Virus record (IMG/VR): IMGVR_UViG_3300039305_000005
Length of the DNA: 41,493 nt
Direction: 5' to 3' (one strand)
Source: a virus
Shown here: positions 5,305 through 34,451 of the stretch, piece after piece
Numbering within the stretch: position 1 is the first letter of the stretch
Layout of the letters: each line of letters starts with the position of its first letter
Program-made: the position numbers and the translations under genes
Notes under the pieces: model-generated
What the model was told of the DNA's origin: nothing
Databases searched by the model: none
What the model saw: the letters and a program-made list of their open reading frames with translations, nothing else

Positions 5305-5317
5305 TGACCCTGGGTCA
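5305..5317. repeat. Class-2 palindrome TGACCCTGGGTCA
   Basis: Starts 3 nt after the TAA (5299-5301). The extended element AAAGTGACCCTGGGTCATATCTCAGTCACAAT resembles the element at 28483-28514. Confidence 0.9.
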
Positions 5318-5365
5318 TATCTCAGTCACAATCTCTAAATTGCACAATTCCATCGTTTAAACCGA

Positions 5366-5437
5366 GAAAAGCCAGGCCGACAGCGCCCGATCAATTTGAT
5401 CAATCTACCGGCGGGAAAGAGCGCGGCCTGGCTTTTC
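5366..5437. promoter_or_regulatory. Perfect 14-bp inverted repeat flanking a 44-nt spacer, abutting the endolysin start
   Basis: GAAAAGCCAGGCCG (5366-5379) and CGGCCTGGCTTTTC (5424-5437). ATG 5440 follows 2 nt later. This could be a terminator or attenuator-like stem, or a protein binding site. Confidence 0.5.
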
Positions 5438-5439
5438 TA

Positions 5440-6087
5440 ATGAAACTTCGCAACACCCTTCACCGTTTCCGTGGCGTTTTGATGTTAGGTTTGGCCTTTA
5501 CCGCACTGGTTGGCATAGCCACCGCATCCAGTGTGAACGCCGATCTGGTTCGCCGTTCCAATAACGCGACGCGTTTGCAGGAACTGAACCCCTACATGCG
5601 CCCCAAAGTCGCCGCTGTTGTTTCCGATCTGGAGCGCCACGGCTTAAAGCCGCTCATTGATGGCGCGATCTTTCGCACGCCGGCGGAACAGGCCGCGCTG
5701 GTGCGTAAAGGCCACTCCAAAGTACTTTACAGCTACCATAACGCTAATACGTGCGATGGCCGTGCACGTCCGTGTTCGCCCAAAGCTGACTCACTCGCCG
5801 CTGACATCGTGGATGGTCAGTTGTTTTGGTCTGCTGGCACACCGTTCTGGTTGAAGCTCGCGAGTTCTGCCCAAAGTCACGATCTCGATTCTGGGATCTA
5901 CTGGGGTTTGAGTGAAGCCCGGCGCAAGATGCTGCGCGATGTCATCGAGTCGAAGCAATGGAACGCGCAGCCGCGTTTAGGCTGGGACACCGCACACGTC
6001 CAGGTGCGCGGTTTATCGCTGGTGCAGGCCAAAGCCGGTAAACGCCTGGTGATGGTGAACGGGCGCAAAGTCATCGTATCACGTTGA
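5440..6087 (+). CDS. Putative endolysin, peptidase M15 (VanY / L-Ala-D-Glu peptidase-like), with N-terminal signal anchor
   Basis: N-terminal hydrophobic segment VLMLGLAFTALVGIATA. The H/D/H-type pattern SYHNAN...AADIVD...WDTAHVQV is typical of M15 zinc peptidases. The gene sits upstream of the terminase genes. Confidence 0.7.
   Translation: MKLRNTLHRFRGVLMLGLAFTALVGIATASSVNADLVRRSNNATRLQELNPYMRPKVAAVVSDLERHGLKPLIDGAIFRTPAEQAALVRKGHSKVLYSYHNANTCDGRARPCSPKADSLAADIVDGQLFWSAGTPFWLKLASSAQSHDLDSGIYWGLSEARRKMLRDVIESKQWNAQPRLGWDTAHVQVRGLSLVQAKAGKRLVMVNGRKVIVSR
5719..5728. repeat. Class-1 palindrome copy (AAGTACTT core)
   Basis: CCAAAGTACTTTAC inside the endolysin CDS, read as S-K-V-L-Y. Confidence 0.9.
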
Positions 6088-6176
6088 TGAGGTGATATGG
6101 ATTTATTTCGCTTCTTACTCGCGTTTGATGTTCCCTCGCTGCAGCATTTTATGAGCTGCTTTTATCTCCTACGGTT

Positions 6177-6347
6177 ATGGATCCCTTAACTCTGATCTCG
6201 ATCGGTTCGTTTGTGCTCGATATCGCCAGCATTGTGCTGGCGGTTTGGTTCATGCGGCGCGAGCGCGAGCTGGAAGAAGAGAATAAGCGCCTGCAGGCCG
6301 AAAACCTTTGGCTGTACAAACACGCGCTGGCCGAAGCCCCTCTGTAA
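6177..6347 (+). CDS. Small membrane protein (56 aa); holin or spanin-like candidate
   Basis: MDPLTLISIGSFVLDIASIVLAVWFMRRERELEEENKRLQAENLWLYKHALAEAPL: one TM segment followed by a charged coiled segment. It lies between the endolysin and TerS and is below the ORF-track size cutoff. Confidence 0.4.
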   Translation: MDPLTLISIGSFVLDIASIVLAVWFMRRERELEEENKRLQAENLWLYKHALAEAPL

Positions 6348-6355
6348 GTACTTTT
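6346..6355. repeat. Class-1 palindrome copy (AAGTACTT core)
   Basis: AAGTACTTTT overlaps the TAA (6345-6347) of the small ORF. ATG 6356 follows directly. Confidence 0.9.
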
Positions 6356-6895
6356 ATGGCACGTGGTATCCAACTGACCGACGAAAAGCGCGCACAAGTC
6401 ATCGCGGCGTTAGCCGCTGGTGATGGTGTGCGCGAAGTGTCGCGCCGGCTCGATGTGCCGGTGTCGACCGTTTCGCGGCTGAAAAACGAGACGATGCCCA
6501 AAGTACTTCGCGAAAGTGTTCCACCGGTTGAGACACCTGACGAACCAATCGGCTTTATTCCGATCGATGATGACGAAGGCGCGCTGATCGACGCGGAATT
6601 CGAGCGCCAGCACCAGCGCGAGCAGCTCGCCGATGAGTGCGAGATGGATCCTGGAACACTCGCGAACCTGGAACAGGTTGGAACACAAAAAAAATCACTG
6701 CACCAGCTCGTCGCCGATCTACTGACGGAAAACCTGCTCACCCTGGCCGCGCACGCCAAGATGTCCCGCGATCCGAAATGGTTCGCACGCCAGGGCGCGG
6801 AGGCGATGGGCATTTTCGATGGTGTGATGTCGGATAAGACGATCCGCATCCTGGAAGCCGCTGCAGCGGCGCAACCTCTGGACAATGGCAACTAA
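6356..6895 (+). CDS. Putative terminase small subunit (N-terminal HTH)
   Basis: The HTH-like sequence GVREVSRRLDVPVSTVSRLK sits at the N-terminus. The gene overlaps the TerL start (ATG 6885; stop 6893-6895). The track ORF 6308 was trimmed to ATG 6356. Confidence 0.6.
   Translation: MARGIQLTDEKRAQVIAALAAGDGVREVSRRLDVPVSTVSRLKNETMPKVLRESVPPVETPDEPIGFIPIDDDEGALIDAEFERQHQREQLADECEMDPGTLANLEQVGTQKKSLHQLVADLLTENLLTLAAHAKMSRDPKWFARQGAEAMGIFDGVMSDKTIRILEAAAAAQPLDNGN
6500..6508. repeat. Class-1 palindrome copy (AAGTACTT core)
   Basis: CCCAAAGTACTTCG inside the TerS CDS, read as P-K-V-L-R. Confidence 0.9.
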
Positions 6896-8477
6896 AGCAA
6901 AATCTTCGACAAAGCGCCCGGCTGGGTTTTCCCGCCGGGCTTCTGCCTTTTTAGCGGCAGCCGTGGCCAGTGCGTTCGCGCCGGTGATGGAGCCGCTTTT
7001 CAACTTCGCACCTGGTGCGCTGGAAGCGCGCGATGCCGCTCGCGAAAAGCTCGCAGCTGAACGCGCAGCGCTAACTGAAGACAAGCTATCGTTTCGCGAA
7101 TTCGTTTCCCTGGTCAATCCAAAATATCGTTGGTTCAAACACTGCGAAGTACTTGGGGATGTTCTGCAGCGTGTGGCCGATGGCGAGATCGATCGCTTGA
7201 TGATCTTCATGCCACCGCGTCACGGCAAAAGCGAAGAAACCTCACGACTCTTCACCGCTTACTTTTTGTATCGCTATCCAAACCGCTGGGTAGGTCTGGC
7301 GTCGTATGCCGCTGATCTGGCCTATACGCTGTCACGAGCGGCGAAAGATAATTTCTTAGCTTCTGGTGGTCAGATCCGCTGGGATGCCAAAGGCGTGAAA
7401 CACTGGCAGACCGAACAGGGCGGCGGCTTGTGGGCTGCCGGCGTTGGCGGTCCCATGACCGGCAAGGGCTGGCATCTCGGAATTATCGACGATCCGCTCA
7501 AGAATGCGGAACAGGCGGCGTCGCTCAAAATTCGTGAGAAACAGAAAGAATGGTTTCAAAGCTCTTTCTCTACTCGAGAAGAACCCGAGGGCGGCGCGCT
7601 CATTTTCATCCTGACGCGGTGGAACGAGGATGACCTGGCCGGCTGGCAGCTCGCCAGTGAAATGGGGCTCGAAGCCGATGAAGCGCAGCGCTGGCATATC
7701 ATCAACTTTCCGGCCCTGGCCGAAAGTGAAGAGGAAGCGCCTGAGTTTCCGGCCAGCTGCACCGTCGAGCCGGATTGGCGCAAGCCTGGTGAGGCGTTGT
7801 GTCCCGAACGCTATAACGTCAAAAAGTTAAAGCGTATCGCGGCGCAAGTCGGCACCTACTTCTGGAACGCGCTATTTCAGCAGCGACCGCGCCCATTAGA
7901 AGGCGCCTTCTTCAAAGCCGATTGGTTTAAGAACATCGTTGGCGCGATCCCTGAAGACTGCAAGCTGGTGCGCTATTGGGACAAAGCGGGTAGTGCGGGC
8001 AAGGGCGATTACACCGTCGGCGTTTTGATGGCGCGCTGGCTCGACGAAGATGGCATTGCAACGTTCTTTATCGTCGACGTGGTGCGTGGCCAGTGGGAAG
8101 CGATCGACCGCGAGCGCGAGATCCGCAAAGTCGCGATGCGTGACGAGTCGCTGTATGGCGAAGGGCGCATCACGATCTGGATGGAGCAAGAAGGTGGCAG
8201 CGGCGGCAAGGAATCGGCGCAGGCGTCCGTGCGTCGCCTGGAAGGCTACAGCGTGCGCACTGAGACTGTTACGGGCAAGGGTGATAAATCCTTGCGCGCG
8301 GATCCGTTTCGCACCCAGGCCAGTGTGGGCAATATTAAGCTGGTTAAAGGCGATTGGATCGTGCCTTATCTGCGTGAGCTGACAGCGTTCCCGAACGGTC
8401 GCAATGATGATCAAGTTGACGCGACAAGTGGTGCGTTTAACAAGTTGGCGCTGGGTCGACGTTGGGAGTGGAATTAA
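6885..8477 (+). CDS. terL: Terminase large subunit
   Basis: P-loop-like MPPRHGKSE, Walker-B-like GIIDDP, and the C-terminal nuclease motif GRNDDQVDATSGAF typical of phage large terminases. It lies next to the portal module. Confidence 0.92.
   Translation: MATKAKSSTKRPAGFSRRASAFLAAAVASAFAPVMEPLFNFAPGALEARDAAREKLAAERAALTEDKLSFREFVSLVNPKYRWFKHCEVLGDVLQRVADGEIDRLMIFMPPRHGKSEETSRLFTAYFLYRYPNRWVGLASYAADLAYTLSRAAKDNFLASGGQIRWDAKGVKHWQTEQGGGLWAAGVGGPMTGKGWHLGIIDDPLKNAEQAASLKIREKQKEWFQSSFSTREEPEGGALIFILTRWNEDDLAGWQLASEMGLEADEAQRWHIINFPALAESEEEAPEFPASCTVEPDWRKPGEALCPERYNVKKLKRIAAQVGTYFWNALFQQRPRPLEGAFFKADWFKNIVGAIPEDCKLVRYWDKAGSAGKGDYTVGVLMARWLDEDGIATFFIVDVVRGQWEAIDREREIRKVAMRDESLYGEGRITIWMEQEGGSGGKESAQASVRRLEGYSVRTETVTGKGDKSLRADPFRTQASVGNIKLVKGDWIVPYLRELTAFPNGRNDDQVDATSGAFNKLALGRRWEWN
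7147..7154. repeat. Class-1 palindrome copy (AAGTACTT core)
   Basis: GCGAAGTACTTGGG inside the TerL CDS, read as C-E-V-L-G. Confidence 0.9.
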
Positions 8478-8619
8478 CAACTTCTGGATTATCGGCTTTT
8501 CGATATTCCAGGCACTTGTTGCAGTAGAACAGATCGTATTTCCCGACAACACGCTTATGGCTGTTGAGCCTTACCATGCTGCGCAGGAATACCCATCTGT
8601 GATCGCATTGCAGTCTCAT
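8437..8619 (-). CDS. Small Cys/His-containing hypothetical protein
   Basis: The ATG directly follows the TAA of the KTSC gene (TAAATG). It contains QCDH...CNKC. The 3' end overlaps the TerL 3' end antisense by 41 nt. Confidence 0.35.
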   Translation of the reverse strand: MRLQCDHRWVFLRSMVRLNSHKRVVGKYDLFYCNKCLEYRKADNPEVVNSTPNVDPAPTC

Positions 8620-8832
8620 TTAACCCACTTTGCTGGCGCTGAATCGCCCTTTTACATGCTGGTCCAAGTACTTTCCCTTGGATGCAGCGACCATCAACGA
8701 ATGATAGGTCATCGCGGGCACGCTGGCGTATTGATAGGTGCCACCGCTTTTGAATTCGACTTCGAGCACGCGGCTTTGCACATCATAGCCGATGCTGGCC
8801 ACGTTGGATGAGGAAACGGGTGTGCGTTGCAT
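8620..8832 (-). CDS. KTSC domain protein
   Basis: SSNVASIGYD...LEVEFKSGGTYQYASVP...SKGKY matches the KTSC-domain pattern. Confidence 0.75.
   Translation of the reverse strand: MQRTPVSSSNVASIGYDVQSRVLEVEFKSGGTYQYASVPAMTYHSLMVAASKGKYLDQHVKGRFSASKVG
8666..8674. repeat. Class-1 palindrome copy (AAGTACTT core)
   Basis: CCAAGTACTTTCC inside the minus-strand KTSC gene, read as G-K-Y-L-D. Confidence 0.9.
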
Positions 8833-8837
8833 AGTGC

Positions 8838-9641
8838 TTATCTCTCCTTACCAATTGTTACCGTTTTTGCATTGTCGTTACTTATTGCGACGATAGTGCC
8901 CGTGTTTTCAATGACATGCCAGTAATCGCCCTCGTGCGCTAATAAGCGACCTCGAACGATGGTGTTATCTTTTTTGATTTCAATGCTGGTTAATGGTGGT
9001 TCATTCAGGTCTCCGTGTAGAGCTGCAGAAAGAAACATATTGGCGTAGCCAAGACTAAAAATAATCGCCACCACGACAGGAAAAGAAAGATTGTGTTTTC
9101 GTGACTGAGTAGTCACAATTATAAATCCAATCATTGTCAGTCCAGCTACCATGAACCTCGCAATAAAGGGAACCAACATCTGCAAAGGTTGCAATGAACC
9201 AAGTCTTAGTGCTTCCTGTGCTGGAATAACTGAGAAAAGTAGAATCCATATAAGGGCATATTTCATCAAGAATTGATAGAAACCGTTAGGTATCGAGTAT
9301 TTCTTACTCAAAAAGGATCCATCTTGATCCTCTGTAGGATCTCCTTGAAGAAATTCACGCCGGCTTAGGACAATACCGAAGATTATTACCACCAAAAAAG
9401 TTACTGGGCTATACAAAATTGCTTGAAGACCCTGACCAAATACTATTTGCTGAGGAACCATTGTGGCCGCATACCAGGTGGCAGCAAAAGGAAGTTGATA
9501 GGTAAGGTGTATCTGGACCGATAGTAACAAAATACCACACGTATATAAGAACCCTGCCACGGCGGTAATTGCTGATATCAGATCGATCAGATTTGCAAAT
9601 GATTGCTTTGATGATTCCTGCTTCTCTTCTGCCACTTCCAT
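8838..9641 (-). CDS. Multi-pass membrane protein (A+T-rich moron; possible exclusion or abortive-infection function)
   Basis: At least 6 hydrophobic segments, then a soluble C-terminal tail (DNTIVRGRLLAHEGDYWHVIENTGTIVAISNDNAKTV). It is antisense and inserted between TerL and the portal gene. AGGA lies before ATG 9641. Confidence 0.75.
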   Translation of the reverse strand: MEVAEEKQESSKQSFANLIDLISAITAVAGFLYTCGILLLSVQIHLTYQLPFAATWYAATMVPQQIVFGQGLQAILYSPVTFLVVIIFGIVLSRREFLQGDPTEDQDGSFLSKKYSIPNGFYQFLMKYALIWILLFSVIPAQEALRLGSLQPLQMLVPFIARFMVAGLTMIGFIIVTTQSRKHNLSFPVVVAIIFSLGYANMFLSAALHGDLNEPPLTSIEIKKDNTIVRGRLLAHEGDYWHVIENTGTIVAISNDNAKTVTIGKER

Positions 9642-9719
9642 TCCTGTTAATTCAAATTGACTTTCCTATTTTAGTCCGTTTCTCGTGCTTACACGTACCC
9701 CTGCATTAAACAGCTGGGT

Positions 9720-11033
9720 ATGAAATTCTTGCAGCAAATCGGCAAAGCGCTCAAACAGCCCGTTTTCTCCGGCTACGGTGGCCGTGGTGGCTGGGGCATG
9801 CGTTCGGGCCTCTTCAGTAATGGATCCTTCGATTACAGGCGCGAAGCCGGTCCGTTGTGGGAGTCGTGCATCCCCTTTATGTGCCTGCGTTGGGAGCAAC
9901 GTGCCACGATCGAGGCGGAACTGGTTATCCAGCGTCGCGACGAAAATGGCGATTGGAAAAACGATCCCGATCACTCCGCGATGGAGCTGATCTCCAATCC
10001 TAACCCCTTCTTTGACATCCACCAGCTGCTCGATGCGGTGCGTTTCGATTATCACCTGTCGGGCAATGGCTACATTCACATAGTGCGCTCGAAATCGCGT
10101 AAGGTCCGCCAACTCTGGTGGATCCCTTCCTGGATGATCGAGCCGCGTTGGGAAGAGAACGGTCTGGAGTTCATCAACTGTTACGAATACATGGTTGATG
10201 GCGTCTCCTACGCTCTGCCGGTTGAGGATATCATCCACTTCAAAAACGGCATCGATCCGCGTACGTTTGGCCGTAAAGGTTTGGGCGACTTCTCCGCGAC
10301 ACTGCGCGAAGTCTGCACCGATAACGAGCGCGCGGTCTTCACCGCGAGCTTGTTGCGCAATATGGGCATTCCTGGCGTGATTATCAGTCCCAAGGGCGGC
10401 AGCGCTGGCGATGAAGCCTCATTAACCAAGCGACAGCGCGCCGAGATCAAAGAAATCTGGAGCGAGTTCACTGGTGAAGGCCGTGGCGAGCCCTGGGTGC
10501 AGTCGATCCCGGTCGAAGTCAACATGCCAGGATTCAGCCCGCAACAGCTGCTGATCGATAAGATATCGTCGATTCCTGAACAGCGCTTGTGCGGTTCGTT
10601 TGGCATTCCGGCCAGCGTGCTGCAGCTGGGCACCGGCCTGGAGAATTCCAACACCAAAGCCAACAAAGGCGACGATCGCGAGCAGGCTTACGAGAGCTGC
10701 GTGATTCCGACGTTGCAGGTCTTCGCGCGCACTTTAACGCGCGTTTTGATGAGCGAGCTCGATGACATTCGCAAAGTGCGCTTCTGGTTCGATCTGTCGG
10801 AAGTCCGGTGCCTGGCCGAAGACGAAAACGCGATTTCGAAGATGCTGACCGAAGCCTGTGGTGGTCCCTATATGACCGTCAATGAAGCGCGCGGACGTCG
10901 CGGTTTAAAGCCGATCCCGGGCGGCGATGACGTGCGCGCTGGCAAAGCGAAGTCAGGTGCCGAAGATGGTACCGAAAAACCCGACGCAGATCCTGCCGAA
11001 AATTCCACCAACGAAGAGAAAGAAGCGGCCTAA
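9720..11033 (+). CDS. Portal protein (HK97-like family)
   Basis: 437 aa, positioned between the terminase and the prohead protease. The sequence character is typical of HK97-type portals and the C-terminus is acidic. Confidence 0.88.
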   Translation: MKFLQQIGKALKQPVFSGYGGRGGWGMRSGLFSNGSFDYRREAGPLWESCIPFMCLRWEQRATIEAELVIQRRDENGDWKNDPDHSAMELISNPNPFFDIHQLLDAVRFDYHLSGNGYIHIVRSKSRKVRQLWWIPSWMIEPRWEENGLEFINCYEYMVDGVSYALPVEDIIHFKNGIDPRTFGRKGLGDFSATLREVCTDNERAVFTASLLRNMGIPGVIISPKGGSAGDEASLTKRQRAEIKEIWSEFTGEGRGEPWVQSIPVEVNMPGFSPQQLLIDKISSIPEQRLCGSFGIPASVLQLGTGLENSNTKANKGDDREQAYESCVIPTLQVFARTLTRVLMSELDDIRKVRFWFDLSEVRCLAEDENAISKMLTEACGGPYMTVNEARGRRGLKPIPGGDDVRAGKAKSGAEDGTEKPDADPAENSTNEEKEAA

Positions 11034-11034
11034 C

Positions 11035-13701: not shown

Positions 13702-13706
13702 AAAGT

Positions 13707-13719
13707 TGACCCAGGGTCA
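13707..13719. repeat. Class-2 palindrome TGACCCAGGGTCA
   Basis: Starts 5 nt after the TAA (13699-13701) of the protease fusion gene. Confidence 0.9.
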
Positions 13720-13725
13720 GAATTG

Positions 13726-13775
13726 AACGTCGAGTAAGTGTTTTTCCGCTTGCTCGACGTTTTCTTTTTCTTTTT
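13726..13775 (+). terminator. Intrinsic terminator
   Basis: AACGTCGAG (13726-13734) pairs with CTCGACGTT (13753-13761), followed by the T-rich run TTCTTTTTCTTTTT. Confidence 0.6.
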
Positions 13776-13803
13776 GTAGTTTTTCCTCAACCTGTGCTAA
13801 AAT
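13774..13803 (+). promoter_or_regulatory. Sigma70-like promoter candidate for the non-coding unit
   Basis: TTGTAG (13774-13779), an 18-nt spacer, then TAAAAT (13798-13803). Confidence 0.4.
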
Positions 13804-13956
13804 TGCATCGGTACATAACAGTCATGCCAATCTCCCGCGTTGAACTTCTCATTCAAGTCCTCTATGAAGTGATTTGCTATGCAAAGAGCTTGATGGAGAC
13901 GCGTTTAAAATGCGTGAGTAAGAGTGAGCAGAAACGGGAACGGCAGGCCATTCATG

Positions 13957-14029
13957 CGGGAAGTAGCTCAGTAGCAGAGCGGCGGGTTACTTGAATCCGT
14001 GCGCGTAGGTGCAAGTCCTACCTTCCTGA
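13957..14029 (+). tRNA. Degenerate tRNA-like element (cloverleaf-compatible; anticodon arm non-canonical, CUU if a 7-nt loop is assumed)
   Basis: - Acceptor stem: CGGGAAG / CTTCCTG.
- D arm: GCTC-AGTAGCA-GAGC.
- Anticodon stem: CGGGT / ATCCG, with loop TACTTGA (A at position 33).
- Variable region: 5 nt.
- T arm: GTAGG-TGCAAGT-CCTAC.
- The conserved GG of the D loop and the TTC of the T loop are absent. Confidence 0.5.
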
Positions 14030-14357
14030 ACAATGCCATATAGGCCGTCTGTGAGCCTTCATCACGTCGTTCTCTTCTCAGAGAGTGTTGGAGGAAGGGC
14101 GAAAGATCACAGAGCATCCAGCGCCGGGTGATGGCCCTGCACGGTGGGCGTGTTGAACGTGCTGCAGCGAAGCCGGACCGCTCTTGGATAAAAGAGGGAA
14201 AGGTACCTTCCAGACAGGCCCGTAAACGTCAACGCAGGCGTGACAGCCGGAGAGACGGCACTTTTACAACTTGTTAGGGTGAGTCTTCATTGACTATGCC
14301 CGCACATTCGAATTTCATGCGCAGCGACACGCATGGAATCGATGTGCGGGCTTTTTT
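14030..14357 (+). ncRNA. Candidate structured non-coding RNA downstream of the tRNA-like element
   Basis: No credible ORF in this stretch. Long-range pairing of GGCCGTCTG (14043-14051) with CAGAC-A-GGCC (14211-14220). Nested local hairpins: CTCT/AGAG, CTCTT/AAGAG (14181-14196) and GGAAAGGTACCTTCC (14197-14211). It ends in a strong terminator. Confidence 0.4.
14298..14357 (+). terminator. Strong intrinsic terminator
   Basis: GCCCGCACAT (14298-14307) pairs with ATGTGCGGGC (14342-14351). An inner stem is formed by CATGCG/CGCATG. TTTTTT follows. Confidence 0.65.
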
Positions 14358-14368
14358 GTTTTGTATCC

Positions 14369-14380
14369 CAAAGTACTTTG
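14369..14380. repeat. Class-1 palindrome copy (AAGTACTT core)
   Basis: CAAAGTACTTTG, ending 16 nt before the capsid ATG 14397. AGGAGA (14385-14390) lies between them. Confidence 0.9.
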
Positions 14381-14396
14381 TCGCAGGAGAGAACAC

Positions 14397-15740: not shown

Positions 15741-15765
15741 GCGCTGCATCTCCTGTGTTCTCTCT

Positions 15766-15794
15766 CACCAGGCCGGTTTAACACCGGCCTGGTG
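15766..15794 (+). terminator. 12-bp perfect hairpin after the capsid gene (attenuator or stabiliser; no T-run)
   Basis: CACCAGGCCGGT (15766-15777) pairs with ACCGGCCTGGTG (15783-15794) around a 5-nt loop. Confidence 0.45.
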
Positions 15795-15805
15795 TTCATC
15801 CATCC

Positions 15806-15815
15806 AAAGTACTTT
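15806..15815. repeat. Class-1 palindrome copy (AAGTACTT core)
   Basis: CCAAAGTACTTTCGAAGG, ending 11 nt before ATG 15827. Confidence 0.9.
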
Positions 15816-15826
15816 CGAAGGAAAAA

Positions 15827-16267
15827 ATGAATAGACAGCTTCTCACATCTGCAGTGCCGCTTTTAGCTTCTGGCGCGGTCGCCGCTGGAGTCACGCAAGT
15901 CGTGGGCTCAACGATCGATACCCAGGGCTATCAAGATATCACCATCATCGCGCATTTGGGCGCCATCACCGCTACAGGCACCGCCACACTTAAAGTTGCC
16001 CAGGGCGAACAGGCCGACGGCTCCGATAAAGCCGATTTGGCCGGCAGCGCCGTAGTGGCCACCGATGCCCACTCCAACAAAGCCATCGCGATCGATATCC
16101 ATCGCCCGACCGAACGCTACATCACGCCGATTCTCAACCGTGCCACTGCCAACGTGGTAGTGGTGGCCATCACAGTGATTTTGCACGGCGCCGCTCACAC
16201 ACCGGTGCAACAGTCCTATGTTGTCGCGCACAAGGCGTTAAACGGACCGGCTGAAGGCGCTGCTTAA
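15827..16267 (+). CDS. Hypothetical head protein (possible decoration or cement protein)
   Basis: 146 aa, A/G/T/V-rich, immediately downstream of the capsid gene. The function is inferred from position only. Confidence 0.75.
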   Translation: MNRQLLTSAVPLLASGAVAAGVTQVVGSTIDTQGYQDITIIAHLGAITATGTATLKVAQGEQADGSDKADLAGSAVVATDAHSNKAIAIDIHRPTERYITPILNRATANVVVVAITVILHGAAHTPVQQSYVVAHKALNGPAEGAA

Positions 16268-16271
16268 TTTC

Positions 16272-16284
16272 TGACCCTGGGTCA
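16272..16284. repeat. Class-2 palindrome TGACCCTGGGTCA
   Basis: Starts 4 nt after the TAA (16265-16267) and ends 8 nt before ATG 16293. Confidence 0.9.
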
Positions 16285-16292
16285 CTTCTTCC

Positions 16293-19209: not shown

Positions 19210-19221
19210 CCAAAGTACTTT
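19210..19221. repeat. Class-1 palindrome copy (AAGTACTT core)
   Basis: CAAAGTACTTTG, followed by GAAGGAG and then ATG 19233 (11 nt after the palindrome). Confidence 0.9.
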
Positions 19222-19232
19222 GAAGGAGCTCT

Positions 19233-20401: not shown

Positions 20402-20416
20402 GTGACCCTGGGTCAC
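20402..20416. repeat. Class-2 palindrome, extended form GTGACCCTGGGTCAC
   Basis: Starts 3 nt after the TGA (20396-20398). It lies 43 nt upstream of ATG 20460. Confidence 0.9.
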
Positions 20417-25575: not shown

Positions 25576-25588
25576 TGACCCAGGGTCA
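25576..25588. repeat. Class-2 palindrome TGACCCAGGGTCA
   Basis: Intergenic, 34 nt after the stop at 25539-25541 and 53 nt before ATG 25642. Followed by CATTC, as at 20416. Confidence 0.9.
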
Positions 25589-25641
25589 CATTCGGGTGCG
25601 AATCTGGGGAATTACTATCTGCAGCGCATAAACCGCGCTGT

Positions 25642-28194
25642 ATGGCCCGTAAATCAATCCCAGAACTGCGCGTTATCGCGTCTCCTAAATCCGCAATTCC
25701 CAACAAGAACACGGCCGGCGTTTTAGTCGCGCAGGTGTTTTCCGATCGCATGGCGTTTGGCCAGGGCGATGGCGCCGGTCTGGGTTTCCAATCACACAAC
25801 CCCACGATCGCAAGCACCTGGCTTAACAGTGGTGTCACCGGTGCGTTTTCCAACGTGTCGGATTCGCTGGAGTTTGTCCGCTTCCACCGCGATGGCCGCG
25901 TCACGATGGGCGCCTCACCACAGATCACGAGTCGCGATGAGGTTTCCGGCTTTACTCTCAAAGGTCGCATCGTCCCCAACGACGCCCGCGTGAATGGCAC
26001 GCTGGCCGGATCCAGTTCGCTGGCGTCTCGCAATTACACCACGTTATCAGGCAGCCACAAAAGCGTGCGAGCGGCCAATGGCACGGCGCATTTCGTCAAT
26101 ACCGGCAGCCAAACCACCGAAGCGATTAAAAGCGCTGATCTGCAGGCCGGACAGGGTTTCACGGGCGAGCTCTATCCATCACTGAAAAGTACTTCCAACG
26201 GCGCGGGCAAAGTTCCGGAAGGCGTGGTCACCTGGGGCGCTGATAGTTTCCGCGTGCGTGTGGTCCATAACGGCACACCGGAAATTCAAAAGAAGTTACC
26301 AGCTGGTTTGTGGGTCAACTTACGTCGCCTCGATGGTGTGCCCACCGTGCGCTTTGATGGCGGCGCGGTGCCGTTCTCAGTGCGACGCATCGGCGGGCGC
26401 CTGGTGTTCTCGATCCAGGGGCAAACCTTCCACTTCCTCGAAACCGATGAAGCCGGCAAAGGCACGGCAACCACGTGGCCAGCTGGGCCGGTTGTCGTAT
26501 CGGCTTATGGTTGCCGGATCCGTGGTGGCATTCATCCCATCGACTACAAGAACGCGGACAACACCGATCAAAGCGGCTCCTTCACGATCAAAGAACCGCG
26601 CAACGCTTACGCGGACGATTCCGCCGATGGTTTCACCGCCGGCTATAAACCAACGCCGGAAAGCGTCACGATCGATGTCACGGCGCCTGCAGGTGCCGTG
26701 CAAACCAAAGTGACTTTAACCGCGGCGAATGGTGGCATCGATGCGCCACTGGTGACCAAGGCGCTCGCGCAGTTTCCGCTGTTGACACGCGAAAGTTCTG
26801 GCGACGGGATCGACATCGGCCCGGCGGTCACGTTTGCCACCTTGCGGGATGCAATGCCGCCGATCGCACCAGGCGCCGAGTTGCGTTTGGACGTGGATCG
26901 CATGATCCTCGACGAACTATTTCCGGCGGGCGCCTGGCGCGATTATGTCGATGAATTCTGCCCCATCACTTTCGAATATCGATGGCATTACACGAGCGGC
27001 GATCCGGGGCCATGGATCCAATGTTTTAAGGGCTATGTGTTCATTCCCAAAGAGGAAACCACCGGCGTCGACGAACGAAAACTTAGCCTGGTCTGCTATG
27101 ACGAGATCATCCGCCTGAAAGACCCCGCCGGCATCATCGATCATCGTTATCCGCCACTCGATTTTCTCTTCGCTCGCAAGCAAAAGCTGGCGCAGAGTTT
27201 GGGCGCGCAGTCGCTGACGGACCTCAAACTTTACGGCGGCGAATGTGTGCGCGAGATTCTGCGTCTGACCCTGGGTCAGTTTGAAGCGAATCGCCTCAAC
27301 ACCACCGGCTACAACGACGAAACCAGCCTGGGCACCCGTTTTGGCTCGATGAAGTTTTTCAGTGCGGACCATTACGCGCTGCTCGATGCCGGCAAGGACT
27401 CGACCGGCTTGATCCCACTATCGCAGCTGGCCAACGGCAACAGCGTGCCCACCACGGGCGGCTGGATGTTACCGGCCAAATGGGAGTCGGACGCGCTATC
27501 GTGGATTCACGATTTCGAGGAACAAGATCAGGGTGTCTTTTTTTATGGCCATCCCAATGGCTACGACGGTGAACGCCCTTATCCCCTCTACGGGAACCTC
27601 GCTAACATCATTGCCGCGCGATCATTCACCCATTTGATTCCCGATGCAATTTATCAGTCTGGTGTTTTGGGTGATGTCGATGCCGATACATTGCTGCAAA
27701 AAGTCTCCATCGATGCGCGTCCAGATAAGCACTTTAATCGCGTGTGGGTTCTGGCGCGTGGCCTGTTTGGCGACGGCTTGGAAGGCATTCTCCCGGCGAT
27801 GCGCATGGCCGTGGCGGAACTGCCCGCAGGCGACCCCAATGCAGCGGCTTACAGCTGGGAACGCACCAAAGTGATTCGCAACAACCTGGCGGGCTTTCCT
27901 GGTGGCGCCGAAGCGCTGGCCTATGTGTATATCGAATTGCTCTCCAATGTAATTTTGAAGTGGCCCACATTCCAGTTCCGTGGACGCGATTACCGGCCAT
28001 TGTCGAATGAACGCCCGGTGCATTTTGGCGACAAGCTGATCGCCAAAATGGACGGCGCTGAATCGGATAGCGGGCTGGGCATCAGTGGTGTCAACTGGCG
28101 TGTGGAACGCTGCGAACACGTGTGGGACATGCAGGATGCTTTCGATCACTGGACAACGGCCTGGTGTCGCCCGCTCTTGTCGAACGGATTATAA
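25642..28194 (+). CDS. Large tail tip / hub protein (host-specificity-like by position)
   Basis: 850 aa, the second gene after the tape measure gene. The function is inferred from size and synteny. Confidence 0.75.
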   Translation: MARKSIPELRVIASPKSAIPNKNTAGVLVAQVFSDRMAFGQGDGAGLGFQSHNPTIASTWLNSGVTGAFSNVSDSLEFVRFHRDGRVTMGASPQITSRDEVSGFTLKGRIVPNDARVNGTLAGSSSLASRNYTTLSGSHKSVRAANGTAHFVNTGSQTTEAIKSADLQAGQGFTGELYPSLKSTSNGAGKVPEGVVTWGADSFRVRVVHNGTPEIQKKLPAGLWVNLRRLDGVPTVRFDGGAVPFSVRRIGGRLVFSIQGQTFHFLETDEAGKGTATTWPAGPVVVSAYGCRIRGGIHPIDYKNADNTDQSGSFTIKEPRNAYADDSADGFTAGYKPTPESVTIDVTAPAGAVQTKVTLTAANGGIDAPLVTKALAQFPLLTRESSGDGIDIGPAVTFATLRDAMPPIAPGAELRLDVDRMILDELFPAGAWRDYVDEFCPITFEYRWHYTSGDPGPWIQCFKGYVFIPKEETTGVDERKLSLVCYDEIIRLKDPAGIIDHRYPPLDFLFARKQKLAQSLGAQSLTDLKLYGGECVREILRLTLGQFEANRLNTTGYNDETSLGTRFGSMKFFSADHYALLDAGKDSTGLIPLSQLANGNSVPTTGGWMLPAKWESDALSWIHDFEEQDQGVFFYGHPNGYDGERPYPLYGNLANIIAARSFTHLIPDAIYQSGVLGDVDADTLLQKVSIDARPDKHFNRVWVLARGLFGDGLEGILPAMRMAVAELPAGDPNAAAYSWERTKVIRNNLAGFPGGAEALAYVYIELLSNVILKWPTFQFRGRDYRPLSNERPVHFGDKLIAKMDGAESDSGLGISGVNWRVERCEHVWDMQDAFDHWTTAWCRPLLSNGL
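26186..26194. repeat. Class-1 palindrome copy (AAGTACTT core)
   Basis: GAAAAGTACTTCC inside the CDS, read as K-S-T-S. Confidence 0.9.
27266..27278. repeat. Class-2 palindrome TGACCCTGGGTCA (the only perfect copy fully inside a long CDS)
   Basis: Read as L-T-L-G-Q within 25642..28194. Confidence 0.9.
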
Positions 28195-28486: not shown

Positions 28487-28499
28487 TGACCCAGGGTCA
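28487..28499. repeat. Class-2 palindrome TGACCCAGGGTCA
   Basis: Intergenic. It is part of AAAGTGACCCAGGGTCACATCTGAGTCACAAT, which is similar to 5301-5332. It is preceded by the direct repeat GTAGAAAAGTG (two copies) and the hairpin GTGTGTAG/CTACACAC. Confidence 0.9.
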
Positions 28500-28552
28500 C
28501 ATCTGAGTCACAATTCCTCAAACATACCCCACGGTGCTTTAAACCGTGGGGT

Positions 28553-29137: not shown

Positions 29138-29139
29138 CC

Positions 29140-29888: not shown

Positions 29889-32800
29889 TGACAAACTTTT
29901 GCTGTGACACCGTAAACGGCAATGATGCTTGGCCGGGCACACCAGCACAACCCAAGAAAACTTTTGCGGCTGTGGCGGCTCTCGTCACCAATCCCGCTGC
30001 GGACAAGGCGATTTTTAAAGCATCTCCGGCCCCTACGATGGTAGGTGGCAATGCAATGGCGACGTGGAACGATTTGGCGAAGTCTATTGCGGTCACGTGG
30101 CAAACGCAGCAACTGGCTGACATCGACAAGTGCGAAGTAGCATGGACGGCGGGCGCAGTCGGAAGTAGCGGCACACCTCCCCTTGATTCTGCCACAGGAA
30201 AGAGGGTCGCGAGTGTAAATGGCTCTCCACGTCTAAACATGACAGGAGCCACTGGCCTCGTAGGTTATCGTTCACTTGGCGCCAACTTCGACTTCTCTGC
30301 GTACCAACAGGTTTCTTTTTGGATCAGAACTAATGCCAATCAGACTTCGGGTTCTTCGCGTATGAGCTTGCGTCTCTGTTCTGATGTAGCAGGCGCGGTT
30401 ACTGTCAACACCATTCCTATTCCTGCCCTCGTCGCTGGTCGCTGGACGTTGGTGACCGTAGACACCGGAGGAAATTTGGGGAACAGCATACAGAGTGTTG
30501 CTCTCTATGCTGACCAGACAAACAGTGCAGCGACAATTTGGCTCGACAATATCATCGCCTGCAAAAATGCAGCGAATGCACTCACACTGACAAGTCTTAT
30601 CTCGAAGGGCACCGCTGGCGAAACCTACTATGGCATTGCCTCAATCGAGAATATTACTGGTGCTGGCTGCACAATCTACATCGACAACCAGACCGAGACG
30701 CTGCGCAATACAGGTCGCGGCTACGCGGCCCAGACACCAGGACTGAATGAGACACTGGCGCTGTGGAAGCGCGAACCGATTACGCTGACGCAGGCGGGAC
30801 TTTCATTGAGTGCGAGTGCGTTTTTTACCACCGCACATGGCACCGTTGCGGCTCCCATTCGTTTTGAATTTGGCTATGAGAATCTCAACGACCCCGCTCC
30901 TACTGGTGAAACGTGGTTCGACGGTCAGAACGGCTTCGCTAATCTTTTTACTGTCAGTCATCGCTACAATCATGTGAGTGGTTTAGGCGCTGTTCGCTTC
31001 TCAAATGGGCTGGTTCTTAATAATGTTCGTGGCAATGTGCTTCAAGTGGTGGGGATCAATAACAGTAACGCAGGTGTATCTGTGCAGAACTCCACCGATT
31101 TTTCTCTCACAGCCGGTGCCTTGAATAATAACGGCTCGGCGGGCTATGCTTCTGCGGGAACTGGTTTTGGACGGATTTTAATTAGAGCCGGGCAAGCCAA
31201 CGGGAACACTATTTATGGATTTGCCTTATCTTCCTTTGAAGATGTGGTGCCGCTAACGGGCAAGAGAATGCCGGTGCGTTTGAATGGAGGGACGCCGATC
31301 AGCTTTCAGGGGCATTCTTGTGTGGTGCGAGATGCTGATTTTAGCAGCAACAGTAACCTTAGTAATCAGGCTGCTGCACCATCAATCGGCCCTTCAACTG
31401 ACGGATTGAACTATGTCATTGATTGCACGCTCTCGAACAGTGGAGCCGTTCCTAACTTTCTCAACACTTCGTTTCGGCATCTGAACTCATTGATCGCAGC
31501 AAAGAATGTCAACCGTGTCGCTGGTGATGATCGCATCTATACCGATGATGCAGTGATTTCCTCGGATACGACCACCACACGCACTGCAGGCCGCTCATGG
31601 AAGTGTAATTTTCAAGGGACTACACGCGATGCTTCCTATCCGGTTCGTTTCCCACTTACACGATTGTTCTGTCGCGCCGCTCGTGCCGTGACGGTCAAGG
31701 CGTCTATGCGTCGTGACAATATCAACGCAGTTGGGCAACTTTTTGTGCGAGGTAATTCTATAGCCGGTGTTGCGGCTGATCTGAGCGCCAGCGCATCGGG
31801 AGCCATTAACCAGTGGGAGACGGTCACACTCACCTTTACACCTACGGAGGACGGTTTCGTTGATGTCTGGTGGGGCAGTTACAGCAGCGTGATAAATGCT
31901 AATGTGTGGGTTGATGATGTGACCATTTCGGGTGCAGTCACTACACGCGAATCAAACACGCTCGATATTGGTTTCTTTGGTGCGCCCTTTGCGGCTGGTG
32001 TCAACGGCAGCACAACAACTTATTTGTCTCTGGCGTGGAATGATGTGCAATTAGCCGAAACCATTCGCGCCACATTGCCGCTAGGCGAAGCTCCCGACGC
32101 AGCGCCTACAGCCACACTCTACAAAAACGGCGTGATTGTGCCGGGTGCGACGATCAACATCGCGTCTGCAGGTGGCAACGACTACGACATCACGACACAG
32201 ATTGCAGCAGGTTGGGCCGCTGGCGATAGCTACAAGCTCAAAGCCTCGTGGACTATTGCGGGTGATGTCTATTCGCAGATGATTGCGCAAGGTAATGTTC
32301 GCGCGGTGCCTAACACCATTGCACCCGACAATGCCACCATCAACGCCATTCATGCCGATTATGCGCGCCGTGGTGACTTGCCGACCGATTATCAACAGCG
32401 CAATGTGGCTGTAACGCTTCCGGCTGACGCAGCGACAAGTGAGAACGTGCAGGACGTGCTCGATGCGCTCGAAGTCTTGAAGGGTGCGGGTTGGACAGAT
32501 GAAACGTTGAAGGCCATTTTTGAGGCACAAAGTACTTTGCAGCAAAGTGCGACCGAGATGGAAACCGATCTTGAAGCCATTAAGATCAAAACGCTCACCT
32601 TTGGCAGCGGCCCAGCTGTGGTCTATTCGCCGGTCATTTCAGTCGGGTTTATTGAACTGGTAGATGGCAGTGATTACTACCAGAGCGAAGGCCGCGCCGT
32701 TGTGGTGCCAATGGCCAGCGGCAACATCATGGCGATCCGCGATCAAATTGCACAACTGCAGTTTGTTGTCGATGACGACGATGCGTTCCTGATTTCAAAT

Positions 32801-32974: not shown

Positions 32975-33024
32975 CAATAAGAAACCGGGTAGGCTATACT
33001 CGCCCCATAAGCCAGAAATGCAAA

Positions 33025-33051
33025 CGCCCGCGATGTGCAGAATCGCGGGCG
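33025..33051 (+). terminator. 10-bp GC-rich hairpin after the fibre gene
   Basis: CGCCCGCGAT (33025-33034) pairs with ATCGCGGGCG (33042-33051). The T-run is weak. Confidence 0.5.
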
Positions 33052-33086
33052 CTATCCCCGGTTAGTGGGACATTTCACAGCTTATC

Positions 33087-33095
33087 AAAGTACTT
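33087..33095. repeat. Class-1 palindrome copy (AAGTACTT core)
   Basis: Ends 21 nt before the integrase ATG 33117. The 17-mer TCAAAGTACTTCCCGGT (33085-33101) is identical to 40164-40180. Confidence 0.9.
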
Positions 33096-33116
33096 CCCGG
33101 TTAGGAGAGACAATTC

Positions 33117-34322
33117 ATGGCCACATCACTCGCGCGGGCCATTCCCGTCGATGATGTTCAAGAAACTGACCCAAGGTCAGATTTTCGAACGTCAGCTTAT
33201 ACCCAACCTTTTCCACACCCTGTACAACCTCACACCGGCCAAACCGCAATCCCCTTTTTGCAAAGCGTTGGCGGCGCCGGTGGACGCTTTGTCGAAGAAC
33301 CGATCGAGGCCGAAGTACTTTCGAGCGAACCCGTGCAGCCGGCACTGATCGAGGTCAGCGACACGCAGCTCGCGCTCGCACCCACGCCACACCTGGTCGA
33401 AGTCGATGTCGTGGCGATGCTGCTCGAAGATAAATCGAGCGCGGCCACTCGCAAAGCGTATGTGGCGGGCCTGAAGCATTTCTTTGGCAACGATCCCAAT
33501 CCTGCCGAAGTGATGGCGTTCCTGCAGCTCGATCGTCGATCGATGGCGATGAGCCTGGCGCAGTATAAAACCCGAATGCGCAAGGCGGGCTGTCGTGGTG
33601 CCGTTATCAACCAGCGTTTGTCCGCAGTCCGCTCGCTGCTCAAATATGCCAACAACCTGGGATTCTGCGATGTGGATCCGCGCGGCCTGGTCGACTCCGA
33701 AAAGATCGCTGCTTATCGTGATACCAGCGGCGTCGATGTGCCCACGTTCATCAAGATCCGCAAAGTACCGGCGAAACGCTACGGTGCTAAATCGGTGCGC
33801 GGCTTGCGCGATATCGCTTTGCTCGATGTCATGTTCGAATTGGGTCTACGTCGCAGCGAAGTGTGCAAACTCAACGTGGAAGACTTCTCGATTCCACAAA
33901 AGAAACTCTGGATCGATGGTAAAGGCCAGCATGGTCAGAAGGTGCCGATGACACTTTCACCAGGCCTGGTCAAAGCGATTGCCGATTATATCCTGGCTGC
34001 CGGCCACGCGGGCGATCGCAAAGGTCCGCTCTTTCGCAACTTGCACCACAATCCAGCGGTTGCCGGCCAACGCTTGACCGGCGACGGTTTGCGCTACCTG
34101 GTGCGCGAGTATGGTCAGGCGGTCGGCATCGAGTCGTTTGCACCGCACAAAATCAGACATACGAGCATCACAGCTGCAGCACTGGCCACCAATGGCAACA
34201 TGACCAAAGTGCAGAAACATAGCCGCCATAAGAAGCTCGAAACCGTGGCGATCTATGTCGATAACGCCAATGATGCGCAGGGCGAAGTCGGTTCATTGCT
34301 GGCGGGCATGGTGCGAAAATAA
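33117..34322 (+). CDS. int: Tyrosine recombinase / integrase
   Basis: Catalytic pattern GLRRSE (Arg), HKIRHTSIT (H-x-x-R) and HKKLETVAIY (His...Tyr). A SAM-like core-binding region (ATRKAYVAGLKHFF) is present. AGGAGA RBS. The N-terminal extension is about 100 aa. Confidence 0.92.
   Translation: MATSLARAIPVDDVQETDPRSDFRTSAYTQPFPHPVQPHTGQTAIPFLQSVGGAGGRFVEEPIEAEVLSSEPVQPALIEVSDTQLALAPTPHLVEVDVVAMLLEDKSSAATRKAYVAGLKHFFGNDPNPAEVMAFLQLDRRSMAMSLAQYKTRMRKAGCRGAVINQRLSAVRSLLKYANNLGFCDVDPRGLVDSEKIAAYRDTSGVDVPTFIKIRKVPAKRYGAKSVRGLRDIALLDVMFELGLRRSEVCKLNVEDFSIPQKKLWIDGKGQHGQKVPMTLSPGLVKAIADYILAAGHAGDRKGPLFRNLHHNPAVAGQRLTGDGLRYLVREYGQAVGIESFAPHKIRHTSITAAALATNGNMTKVQKHSRHKKLETVAIYVDNANDAQGEVGSLLAGMVRK
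33167..33179. repeat. Class-2 palindrome, imperfect (TGACCCAAGGTCA)
   Basis: 5-bp arms TGACC/GGTCA, inside the integrase N-terminal coding region. Confidence 0.6.
33313..33321. repeat. Class-1 palindrome copy (AAGTACTT core)
   Basis: GAAGTACTTTCGA inside the integrase CDS, read as E-V-L-S. The same 13-mer occurs at 29406-29418. Confidence 0.9.
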
Positions 34323-34329
34323 AGTGATG

Positions 34330-34357
34330 TTGAGTTTTTCGTCAATTTGGGTATAAT
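34330..34357 (+). promoter_or_regulatory. Sigma70-like promoter candidate downstream of int
   Basis: TTGAGT (34330-34335), a 16-nt spacer, then a perfect TATAAT (34352-34357). Confidence 0.45.
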
Positions 34358-34363
34358 CCTCTT

Positions 34364-34437
34364 TGACAGTTTGGCGGCATCCATCGAATCAGCAAAAAGC
34401 GCGGCACCCACCGGGGAATGCCGCGCTTTTTGTTTTT
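34364..34437 (+). ncRNA. Candidate small RNA (about 70-75 nt, promoter to terminator)
   Basis: Bounded by the TATAAT promoter and the intrinsic terminator at 34394-34437. It contains no credible ORF. Confidence 0.3.
34394..34437. terminator. Bidirectional intrinsic terminator between convergent genes
   Basis: AAAAAGCGCGGCA (34394-34406) pairs with TGCCGCGCTTTTT (34419-34431). An A-run lies upstream and a T-run downstream. Confidence 0.65.
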
Positions 34438-34438
34438 C

Positions 34439-34451
34439 TGACCCTGGGTCA
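34439..34451. repeat. Class-2 palindrome TGACCCTGGGTCA
   Basis: Lies immediately after the terminator T-run. It overlaps the stop codon (34449-34451) of the minus-strand gene 34449..34640. Confidence 0.9.

Follow-up and report, generated by a model that had tools for sequence, protein, structure and literature searches.

Cluster A stoperators and the CIR sites of phiC31 are short dispersed sites near stop or start codons that are bound by a repressor to block lytic transcription, and the O_B operator of the plasmid RK2 is a 13-bp palindrome that recurs about a dozen times over the replicon. KorB, a ParB-family CTP clamp, loads at O_B and silences promoters, including promoters at a distance (PMC11790492). 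SopB of N15 has four natural inverted-repeat (IR) centromere sites, GTGCGACCNNGGTCGCAC (PMC7205306), and the sopC dyad of F is TGGGACCACGGTCCCA (PMC2910045). In Cluster O mycobacteriophages a 17-bp dyad, TGTTCGGNNNCCGAACA, is present in more than 30 copies; its function is unknown, and it was judged not to control promoters (PMC4351075). Here we analyzed the virus record IMGVR_UViG_3300039305_000005 (41,493 nt, as a whole referred to as the window), in which the 13-mer TGACCCWGGGTCA is repeated in eight perfect copies. These are probably double-stranded DNA sites for some phage-encoded dimeric protein, with the phage's own ParB as the leading candidate. Positions 1-127 of the window are identical to 41367-41493, an assembly overlap of 127 nt, so that the window represents one complete circular genome of 41,366 bp; its source is an uncultivated, temperate, siphovirus-like phage.

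A dispersed 13-bp dyad

An earlier sequence-only reading of the window had described eight perfect copies of this palindrome, and a pattern count returned exactly eight. None is expected by chance in the 41-kb genome, and TGACCCWGGGTCA was absent from all 100 dinucleotide-preserving shuffles. The two imperfect copies of that reading (33167 and 40326) were recovered with one mismatch each; the mismatch scan added a two-mismatch copy at 23272, which is within chance (0.53 expected). Under the gene map used to separate coding from non-coding sequence, 8.9% of the genome is non-coding, and seven of the eight copies fall in this fraction (binomial P ~3e-7). The perfect copies, the one-mismatch copies and the module behind copy 1 are as follows.

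5305..5317, copy 1, center T: 3 nt past the stop of gene g7 (TAA 5299-5301), heading the late operon, with the lysin ATG 122 nt downstream
5318..5362 (+), module 3' of copy 1: YATCTSAGTCACAAT ... TTTAAACCG; the same follows copies 5 and 7 at 25589-25641 and 28500-28552
13707..13719, copy 2, center A: 5 nt past TAA 13699-13701 of an 888-aa head-associated gene
16272..16284, copy 3, center T: 4 nt past TAA 16265-16267 and 8 nt before ATG 16293
20403..20415, copy 4, center T: 4 nt past TGA 20396-20398; extends to TGTGACCCTGGGTCACA
25576..25588, copy 5, center A: 34 nt past a stop and 53 nt before ATG 25642
27266..27278, copy 6, center T: the sole in-gene copy, in the 850-aa tail protein open reading frame (ORF) 25642-28194, where it encodes L-T-L-G-Q
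28487..28499, copy 7, center A: 53 nt before ATG 28553; downstream module in common with copy 1
34439..34451, copy 8, center T: 3' of the integrase-gene terminator, preceded by a hairpin and TTTTTGTTTTTC
33167..33179, one-mismatch copy TGACCCAAGGTCA: 50 nt into the integrase gene
40326..40338, one-mismatch copy TGACCCAGGGCCA: within the 3' part of parB

These placements bear out the positional claims of the earlier reading: copies at late-gene boundaries, four of the eight starting 3-5 nt past a stop codon, 53-nt spacings from 25576 and 28487 to the ATGs at 25642 and 28553, and a single copy (27266) buried in a long coding sequence. At 34439 the copy does follow a terminator and overlap an opposite-strand stop, its last three bases being the stop of the minus-strand ORF 34449-34640. 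The ~32-nt element that had been noticed at both 5305 and 28487 is real and extends further, to a common downstream promoter-like or leader module of ~66 nt that ends in TAAACCG and is also present at 25576; the other five copies have no such module. Directly 3' of copy 2 there is an intrinsic terminator (13725-13762) and then a tRNA-Lys gene, and this gap holds no protein gene. Copy 3 ends 8 nt before ATG 16293 and is thus not that gene's promoter; no Shine-Dalgarno sequence lies between the two.

The 12 outer bases are invariant across all eight copies, with no compensatory variation. The central base is A in three copies and T in five, unrelated to flank orientation (copies 1 and 7 have the same flanks and different centers). 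In all 17 of the 17 perfect palindromic sites counted (14 dispersed copies from three phage lineages and one site each in the phages L003, L027, and L112) the center is W, and it is never C or G. Lone half-sites, at 14 versus ~12 expected, show no enrichment. A center that is indifferent to strand and restricted to W points to a two-fold symmetric protein on duplex DNA, and the identical outer bases argue against a purely structural element, which would vary compensatorily. The dimer-binding DNA dyad proposed in the sequence-only reading is thus the interpretation that best suits the invariant bases, the W center, and the unenriched half-sites.

Some other ideas about the copies were tried and dropped. 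Accelerated evolution of the in-gene copy was withdrawn, as the copy has 6 of 13 matches to the relative L345 in a gene that is 69% identical, and 12% of 13-nt windows are as poor. Use of the 13-mer as the integrase site is not supported, because 6-bp arms around a 1-bp center misfit a tyrosine-recombinase core and L345, a closer relative found in the integrase scan, has no copies. The 13-mer was also rejected as the immunity operator, because the divergent early control region (38111-38295) contains TTGTAACA repeats and no 13-mer copy at up to two mismatches.

A probably phage-private and a host-wide palindrome

The window carries a second palindrome, CAAAGTACTTTG, with the 12-mer core AAAGTACTTT. 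There are 14 perfect cores and 34 with at most one mismatch, mostly located 2-25 nt upstream of start codons.

2040-2051, 3147-3158, 14369-14380, 19211-19222, 23358-23369, and 32528-32539: examples of the 12-mer in the window

No intergenic gap has both motifs; the 13-mer is found at the 5' end of gaps and the 12-mer at the 3' end. The contig L108, which comes from one sample that also contains the source phage, consists of ~6 kb of putative host DNA plus a prophage and has the 12-mer 12 times in 11 kb. The 12-mer is dense (~1 per kb) in L108 (1-5800, including the host-type genes ligA and Memo), in L111, and in L345. The 13-mer, at up to two mismatches, does not occur in L108 and L111 (28.5 kb with 26 12-mer cores), where ~8 copies would be expected at the window ratio, and there is no CCCWGGG in 20 kb of L345, versus 10 12-mer cores there. 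Judged on ~6 kb of host-like DNA plus related phages, the 13-mer appears to be private to the phage lineage, whereas the 12-mer resembles a motif of the whole host clade (a general regulatory word, or uptake-sequence-like) and not a phage operator. The sequence-only reading had allowed that its palindrome might turn out to be a common repeat of the host chromosome; this applies to the 12-mer and not to the 13-mer, which is absent from L108, L111, and L345. One genome holds two palindromes, one host-wide and the other apparently private, a warning for annotation that the palindromes of a single phage can differ in nature.

An exact scan of IMG/VR with TGACCCAGGGTCAC returned 78 isolated matches and the ends of IS21-like elements with 2-3 copies, and an exact scan with GTCACCCWGGGTGAC returned single matches only. 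In the metagenome scan, the matches listed (at least 120) were single occurrences and a 39%-GC eukaryote-like repeat, and the host was not among the matches listed. A literature search on the motif strings found nothing relevant. The eukaryote-like repeat (~39% GC; L262, L225, L208, L209, L223; JAAUY*/JAAUX* metagenome contigs) contains the 13-mer and degenerate copies arrayed in tandem (cctggTGACCCTGGGTCAgggtcag...); it has no relation to the phage and dominates the metagenome matches listed. Just outside the istB end of an IS21-like element in L038 (IMGVR_UViG_643886018_000003, 8310-8415) there are three copies or variants of the dyad, TTGACCCACCTGGGTCAC, GTGACCCTGGGTCAG, and TTGACCCAGGGTCAA. 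These are presumably transposase-binding terminal repeats, and their likeness to the phage dyad is probably convergent.

Comparison with the closest relatives did not uphold the proposal of a late-gene regulatory role as a conserved feature. L345, with tail proteins 61-91% identical in amino acid sequence to those of the window, has no 13-mer copy at syntenic boundaries: the g27/g28 spacer is 84% identical and has TAACCCACTTTCC aligned where the window has TGACCCAGGGTCA (copy 5), different residues are encoded at the in-gene site, and the g29/g30 spacer is unrelated. L111 (TerL 67%) also has no copy at syntenic boundaries, and in L111 and L003 (TerL 66%) unrelated long hairpins or terminators occupy the g18/g19 and g15/capsid boundaries. 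Relatives without the element at these boundaries are what the sequence-only reading had itself named as evidence against its proposal. As far as these genomes indicate, the 13-mer is a lineage-private feature and not a conserved part of late-gene control in the phage group.

Versions of the dyad were found in other, more distant phages. The ENA phage L023/L326, which has a related integrase (35%), ParA/ParB (38%), a LexA-like protein (30%), and g7-like genes, contains TTTTGTCACCCWGGGTGACAAAA three times (core version TCACCCWGGGTGA). One core lies 5 nt past the tape-measure stop and one 5 nt past the integrase stop; the third copy, 3' of a g7-like gene, comes after a terminator and TTTTTGTTTT, the same context as that of copy 8 in the window. 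The IMG/VR contig 3300048835_000859 (integrase 41%) has three (G)CTGTATCCCWGGGATACAG(C) copies (TATCCCWGGGATA in three copies), two of them starting 5-6 nt past stops. In L003, GCGTATCCCAGGGATACGC is located 3 nt past a short ORF that follows the g7 homologue and upstream of the lysin gene, syntenic with copy 1. In L027 the parA/parB junction coincides exactly with a 21-bp palindrome, TTTGTTGCCCAGGGCAACAAA, and L026 has the palindrome TTGTCCC-CA-GGGACAA. From the sequences compared, the CCCWGGG core and the stop-proximal placement recur across lineages, and the outer bases change symmetrically.

Other palindromes were noted in these phages. L112 (IMGVR_UViG_3300034031_000030, 3825-16990), whose ParB is the closest (42%), carries a dispersed palindrome of its own, the 22-bp GTACGGTCGAWWTCGACCGTAC, with ~12 copies in 20 kb, mostly in early-region gaps; its outer arms resemble the halves of the 12-mer (AAAGTAC...GTACTTT). 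In L345 (IMGVR_UViG_3300042994_000012, 5422-5446), at the boundary syntenic with copy 7, TGTTTCGCACGAAACA overlaps the stop codon and is directly followed by AAAGTACTTT. The outer arms of TGTTTCGCACGAAACA (TGTTTC...GAAACA) are identical to those of the chromosomal parS consensus.

Candidate binding proteins and their genome context

Few proteins in the window are candidates for binding the dyad. The LexA-like protein and g7, both named in the sequence-only reading, are kept here as rival candidates, with some uncharacterized early proteins besides; the ParA/ParB pair, which that reading left out, is ranked first.

38460..39218 (+): ParA-type Walker ATPase, 252 aa, Pfam AAA_31/CbiA/ParA
39224..40528 (+): ParB/RepB/Spo0J-family protein, 434 aa, with ParB_N and HTH_ParB; leading candidate binder
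40609..41334 (+): LexA-like winged-helix and S24-like protein, 241 aa, with GNCM where homologues have GDSM; alternative candidate binder
4930..5301 (+): g7, a conserved 123-aa helix-turn-helix (HTH)-like protein whose gene stops 3 nt short of copy 1; a late regulator or an alternative candidate binder

The reading that we favor, and hold tentatively, is that the 13-mers may be dispersed parS-like loading or centromere sites for the phage ParB, which might also dampen, silence, or insulate late transcription units. This protein passes TIGR00180 (75.4 bits versus a cut-off of 58.45), and in the PDB it is matched best by Caulobacter ParB and Spo0J and marginally by KorB (E 0.003). The genes are those of a ParABS system, with a Walker ParA adjacent to a ParB that has an N-terminal ParB domain and an HTH. 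A ParA/ParB pair needs a centromere, and the 12-mer, being host-wide, is unsuited as a replicon-specific one, which makes the 13-mer the candidate; no other repeated private palindrome was found in or near the par operon. All five phages found to encode a homologous ParB (among them L023/L326, L027, L026, and L112) have at least one private long perfect palindrome, and the closest relatives, L345 and L111, have neither a ParB nor such a palindrome in the regions seen. A one-mismatch copy (40326) lies inside parB itself. As to whether the site is specific to the replicon, L108 (~6 kb of host-like DNA plus a prophage), L111, and L345, all of which have the 12-mer, contain no 13-mers.

If ParB is the binder, the chromosomal-type ParA/ParB pair would use the dispersed 13-mers, and an extrachromosomal prophage would gain a centromere. 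Clamps of the ParB family slide or spread away from the sites at which they load, and the copies at late-gene ends might also silence or insulate late units, as RK2 KorB does from 13-bp O_B and as is reported for N15 SopB at its dispersed IR sites. The stop-proximal position may reflect origin and not function, boundary hairpins like those in relatives being the easiest raw material for a new dyad site. We infer ParB, rather than another early protein, as the binder, and likewise plasmid maintenance of the phage and an effect on transcription. At its fullest, the proposal would be that a ParB clamp loads at stop-codon-proximal NNNCCCWGGGNNN dyads, an undescribed family in several uncultivated temperate lineages whose outer bases co-evolve with a chromosomal-type ParB, and that it both segregates the prophage and shuts down or insulates late units, as a phage counterpart of RK2 KorB with sites evolved from 3'-end hairpins. 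In this full form we regard it as distinctly unlikely.

Several observations weigh against ParB as the binder. In ParB, the arginine-patch motif of the CTP pocket (GxxRxxA / GERRxRA when intact) is AHTRKAA, versus GHRRK(A/Y/H)(A/T) in four relatives; one Arg and the Lys are kept, and the Gly and one Arg are lost, which makes CTP-clamp activity uncertain. The L112 ParB has a nearly identical HTH region and yet a different palindrome. No ParA/ParB is detectable in the 27.7 kb of contig 3300048835_000859 (possibly incomplete), which has three copies of TATCCCWGGGATA, and L003 has one copy and no ParB by pattern scan. Placement 3-6 nt past stops, which recurs in L023/L326 and 3300048835_000859, is left unexplained by the ParB model. 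The phage carries an integrase, so a plasmid state is not established. In L023, the LexA-like protein, g7-like proteins, and other early genes, e3 and rep172 (172-aa ORF 37592-38110), also co-occur with the motif, and the correlation between ParB and palindromes covers fewer than 10 partly seen genomes. With AHTRKAA in ParB and GNCM in the LexA-like protein, both proteins may be functionally altered.

Of the alternatives, a role of the copies as RNA is very improbable. In such a role, late cistrons would end in a short hairpin that is read by a sequence-specific RNA-binding protein or nuclease (for processing, stabilization, or attenuation), or that couples termination to re-initiation at the next gene. 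Copies are found 3-6 nt past stop codons in three lineages and unrelated hairpins at the same boundaries in relatives, the change from G2/C12 in the window to C2/G12 in L023 keeps pairing, and several copies are followed by a pyrimidine-rich TTCC-ATG without a Shine-Dalgarno sequence, all of which would suit an RNA element. However, the triloop hairpins have stems of 5-7 bp and folding energies of -4.8 to -9.6 kcal/mol, and their z-scores (-2.35 to +0.09) are not significant versus shuffled sequence, in agreement with the weak stem described in the sequence-only reading. In a terminator test, a lax scan accepts a single case, 20401-17 (plus strand), there are no other U-tracts, and the real terminators stand beside copies 2 and 8; the copies are not intrinsic (Rho-independent) terminators. 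Their identity in place of compensatory change, and a loop center at which A and U swap freely and C or G never appears, are the signature of two-fold DNA symmetry and not of loop recognition, and the copy at 34439 lies past a terminator, between convergent genes. The least probable explanation is a host-derived repeat or host-factor site (an uptake-type sequence, REP-like element, or global regulator box) that is merely common to phage and host. The other palindrome, AAAGTACTTT, is exactly such a word, with its 12 occurrences in 11 kb of L108, including ligA and Memo, and its density in L111 and L345, and the same 13-mer does occur in unrelated contexts (IS21-like element ends and the eukaryote-like repeat). 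The absence of any copy from L108 and L111 against ~8 expected, the absence of CCCWGGG from 20 kb of L345, and the isolated occurrences that alone appear among the IMG/VR and metagenome matches listed all argue against a host repeat, on the ~6 kb of host-like DNA seen.

Among DNA-binding alternatives, it is unlikely that the copies are roadblock or silencing operators for another phage repressor (the LexA-like protein or another early protein), which would be bound at late-gene ends in the lysogen, stop read-through, and be released on induction, in the manner of a symmetric stoperator or phiC31 CIR. The evidence for a DNA dyad serves this explanation as it does ParB. LexA-family dimers bind palindromes of about 13-mer size, similar to that of the dyad, and in the three phages with the closest CCCWGGG-core palindromes (the source phage, L023, and L027) the LexA-like gene comes after parB. 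Placement past stops and beside terminators suits the blocking of transcription better than it suits a centromere, and L111 and L003 have ordinary hairpins or terminators at the syntenic boundaries. On the other hand, the early divergent promoters, at which an immunity repressor has to work, have the TTGTAACA repeats and no copy, and none lies 5' of the LexA-like gene either. In L026, parB has no LexA-like neighbor and a CCC..GGG palindrome is retained; the protein of the window has Cys at the predicted catalytic Ser position, and the LexA match scores 26 bits versus a family cut-off of 111. Nor does the site have the form of a stoperator: it is a perfect palindrome whose A/T center is uncorrelated with flank orientation, and it is not located at an early lytic promoter. 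Improbable, too, is the use of the sites by g7 as a late activator or Q-like antiterminator loading at several late promoters. At the head of the lysis-terminase operon, g7 ends 3 nt ahead of copy 1, and it has homologues that are followed by a CCCWGGG-core palindrome in L003 and, after a terminator, in L023. The downstream module of copies 1, 5, and 7, ending in TAAACCG, recurs as a conserved stretch 5' of the lysin gene in L111 and L108, and -10-like hexamers, hand-picked and statistically unsupported, lie 33.5-34.5 bp from the dyad center at copies 1, 4, and 5. An AlphaFold2 model of g7 is helical (pLDDT 75), with weak fold matches mostly to winged-helix regulators; none of these is significant (all E > 1), and no Pfam, PHROG, NCBIfam, or PDB sequence match was found. 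A pattern scan for g7 relatives in IMG/VR returned two contigs only. The closest g7 homologues of known genomic context (L111 57%, L108 55%, L109/L002 41-44%) have no dispersed dyad and no dyad at the conserved late leader, five of the eight copies are without the module, an ATG lies 8 nt past the end of copy 3, and a terminator comes directly after copy 2. A sigma-70 scan of the late region found 2 sites versus 9.9 expected, none at the copies. In lambdoid phages, the gene for the antiterminator Q is directly followed by a single late promoter with the Q-binding element, and a terminator precedes the first late gene. In the window, g7, copy 1, the conserved TAAACC, and a leader hairpin with a 14-bp stem precede the lysin, but g7 has no match to any Q family, seven copies lie elsewhere, and the leader is kept in relatives without the dyad.

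This structured leader, just before the lysin start, is conserved at 5356-5439 in the window, ~7420-7500 in L111, and 10838-10921 in L108. It has a 14-bp stem with five compensatory pairs across the three phages, a ~44-nt conserved loop, and the conserved TAAACC on its 5' side, and it matches no Rfam family. It may serve as a riboregulator, or as an attenuator or terminator of the late operon.

Other features of the genome are listed here.

115-2037: replication initiator gene
13725-13762 (strong) and 14330-14348: terminators on either side of tRNA-Lys
13957-14029: tRNA-Lys(CTT) gene, located in the long gap that separates the capsid gene from the portal-proximal 888-aa gene
33117-34322: tyrosine integrase
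Other genes recognized: endolysin, TerS, TerL, portal, major capsid, and tape-measure protein

An early operon runs leftward, and a rightward operon holds HTH_17, ParA, ParB, the LexA-like protein, and the replication gene. Four TTGTAACA-type direct repeats at 38190-38252 overlap a promoter-like pair, TTGTAA...TAGAAT; the repeats are probable immunity operators and are related to neither palindrome. The tRNA is the only Rfam match in the genome. The 888-aa gene after the portal gene (11035-13701) matches a 2'-5' RNA ligase-type PHROG, and its L111 homologue has Pfam 2_5_RNA_ligase2 and Acb1 matches, which suggests that the product carries a putative virion-associated anti-CBASS-type phosphodiesterase domain. 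Megablast against 50,697 phage records gave no match to the source phage, its TerL is at most 40% identical to that of any cultured phage, and its ParB is nearly absent from the cultured-phage collection. A TerL scan of genome contigs gave one distant Acidobacteria metagenome-assembled genome as a match.

Known dispersed dyads compared

N15, like the source phage, is a temperate phage with a ParA/ParB-type pair and scattered identical short palindromes, and a GACC...GGTC core is common to the sites of N15 (GTGCGACCNNGGTCGCAC), F (TGGGACCACGGTCCCA), and the window (GTGACCCWGGGTCAC). In the work of Ravin, Rech & Lane 2008 (J Bacteriol 190:3538), two of the N15 sites reportedly lie near late-expression elements, and Sop is said to affect late genes. 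N15 differs in the spacer (2 nt, versus 3 nt in the odd-length dyad here) and in the number of sites (4, versus 8-10 here). The ParB described here is closer to chromosomal ParB/Spo0J than to SopB, its ParA is short (252 aa), and the genome is circular with an integrase, unlike that of N15. We know of no N15 counterpart for the stop-codon proximity.

RK2 KorB/O_B is similar in its 13-bp palindrome with a degenerate center, its dispersed copies, and a ParB-family clamp for partition and silencing. It differs in that RK2 is a plasmid and not a phage and in that KorB cooperates with KorA, which has its own 12-bp operator; in the window, the 12-bp palindrome is host-wide and not a private operator, and no KorA homologue was seen. 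The Cluster O dyad, too, has invariant inverted arms and an A/T-rich center without orientation bias, is located in intergenic gaps or close to them, is absent from the host genome, and is predicted to be bound by a dimer. On the other hand, its more than 30 copies are mostly in the early or leftward region, the phages are not obviously temperate and have no parAB, and the sequences are unrelated. Stoperators are asymmetric, oriented with transcription, and the same as the early-promoter operator, whereas the 13-mer is symmetric and absent from the early control region.

The function of such dyads is settled in only some of the known cases, and the genome described here offers a clean 13-bp site with few candidate binders in 41 kb, together with relatives of which some have lost the site and others carry co-varying versions. 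Should ParB be the binder, a ParB-family protein would organize or silence a phage late operon from multiple loading sites, and the lineages would provide a natural series of parS specificity variants. If it is not, the strict post-stop placement in three lineages suggests that a DNA-binding protein is connected with cistron ends in a way yet to be explained. Dispersed genome-private dyads are of a known kind, represented by the N15 IRs, RK2 O_B, phiC31 CIRs, stoperators, and the Cluster O dyad, to which this motif family adds a CCCWGGG core, co-varying flanks, and strict post-stop placement across several uncultivated phage lineages.

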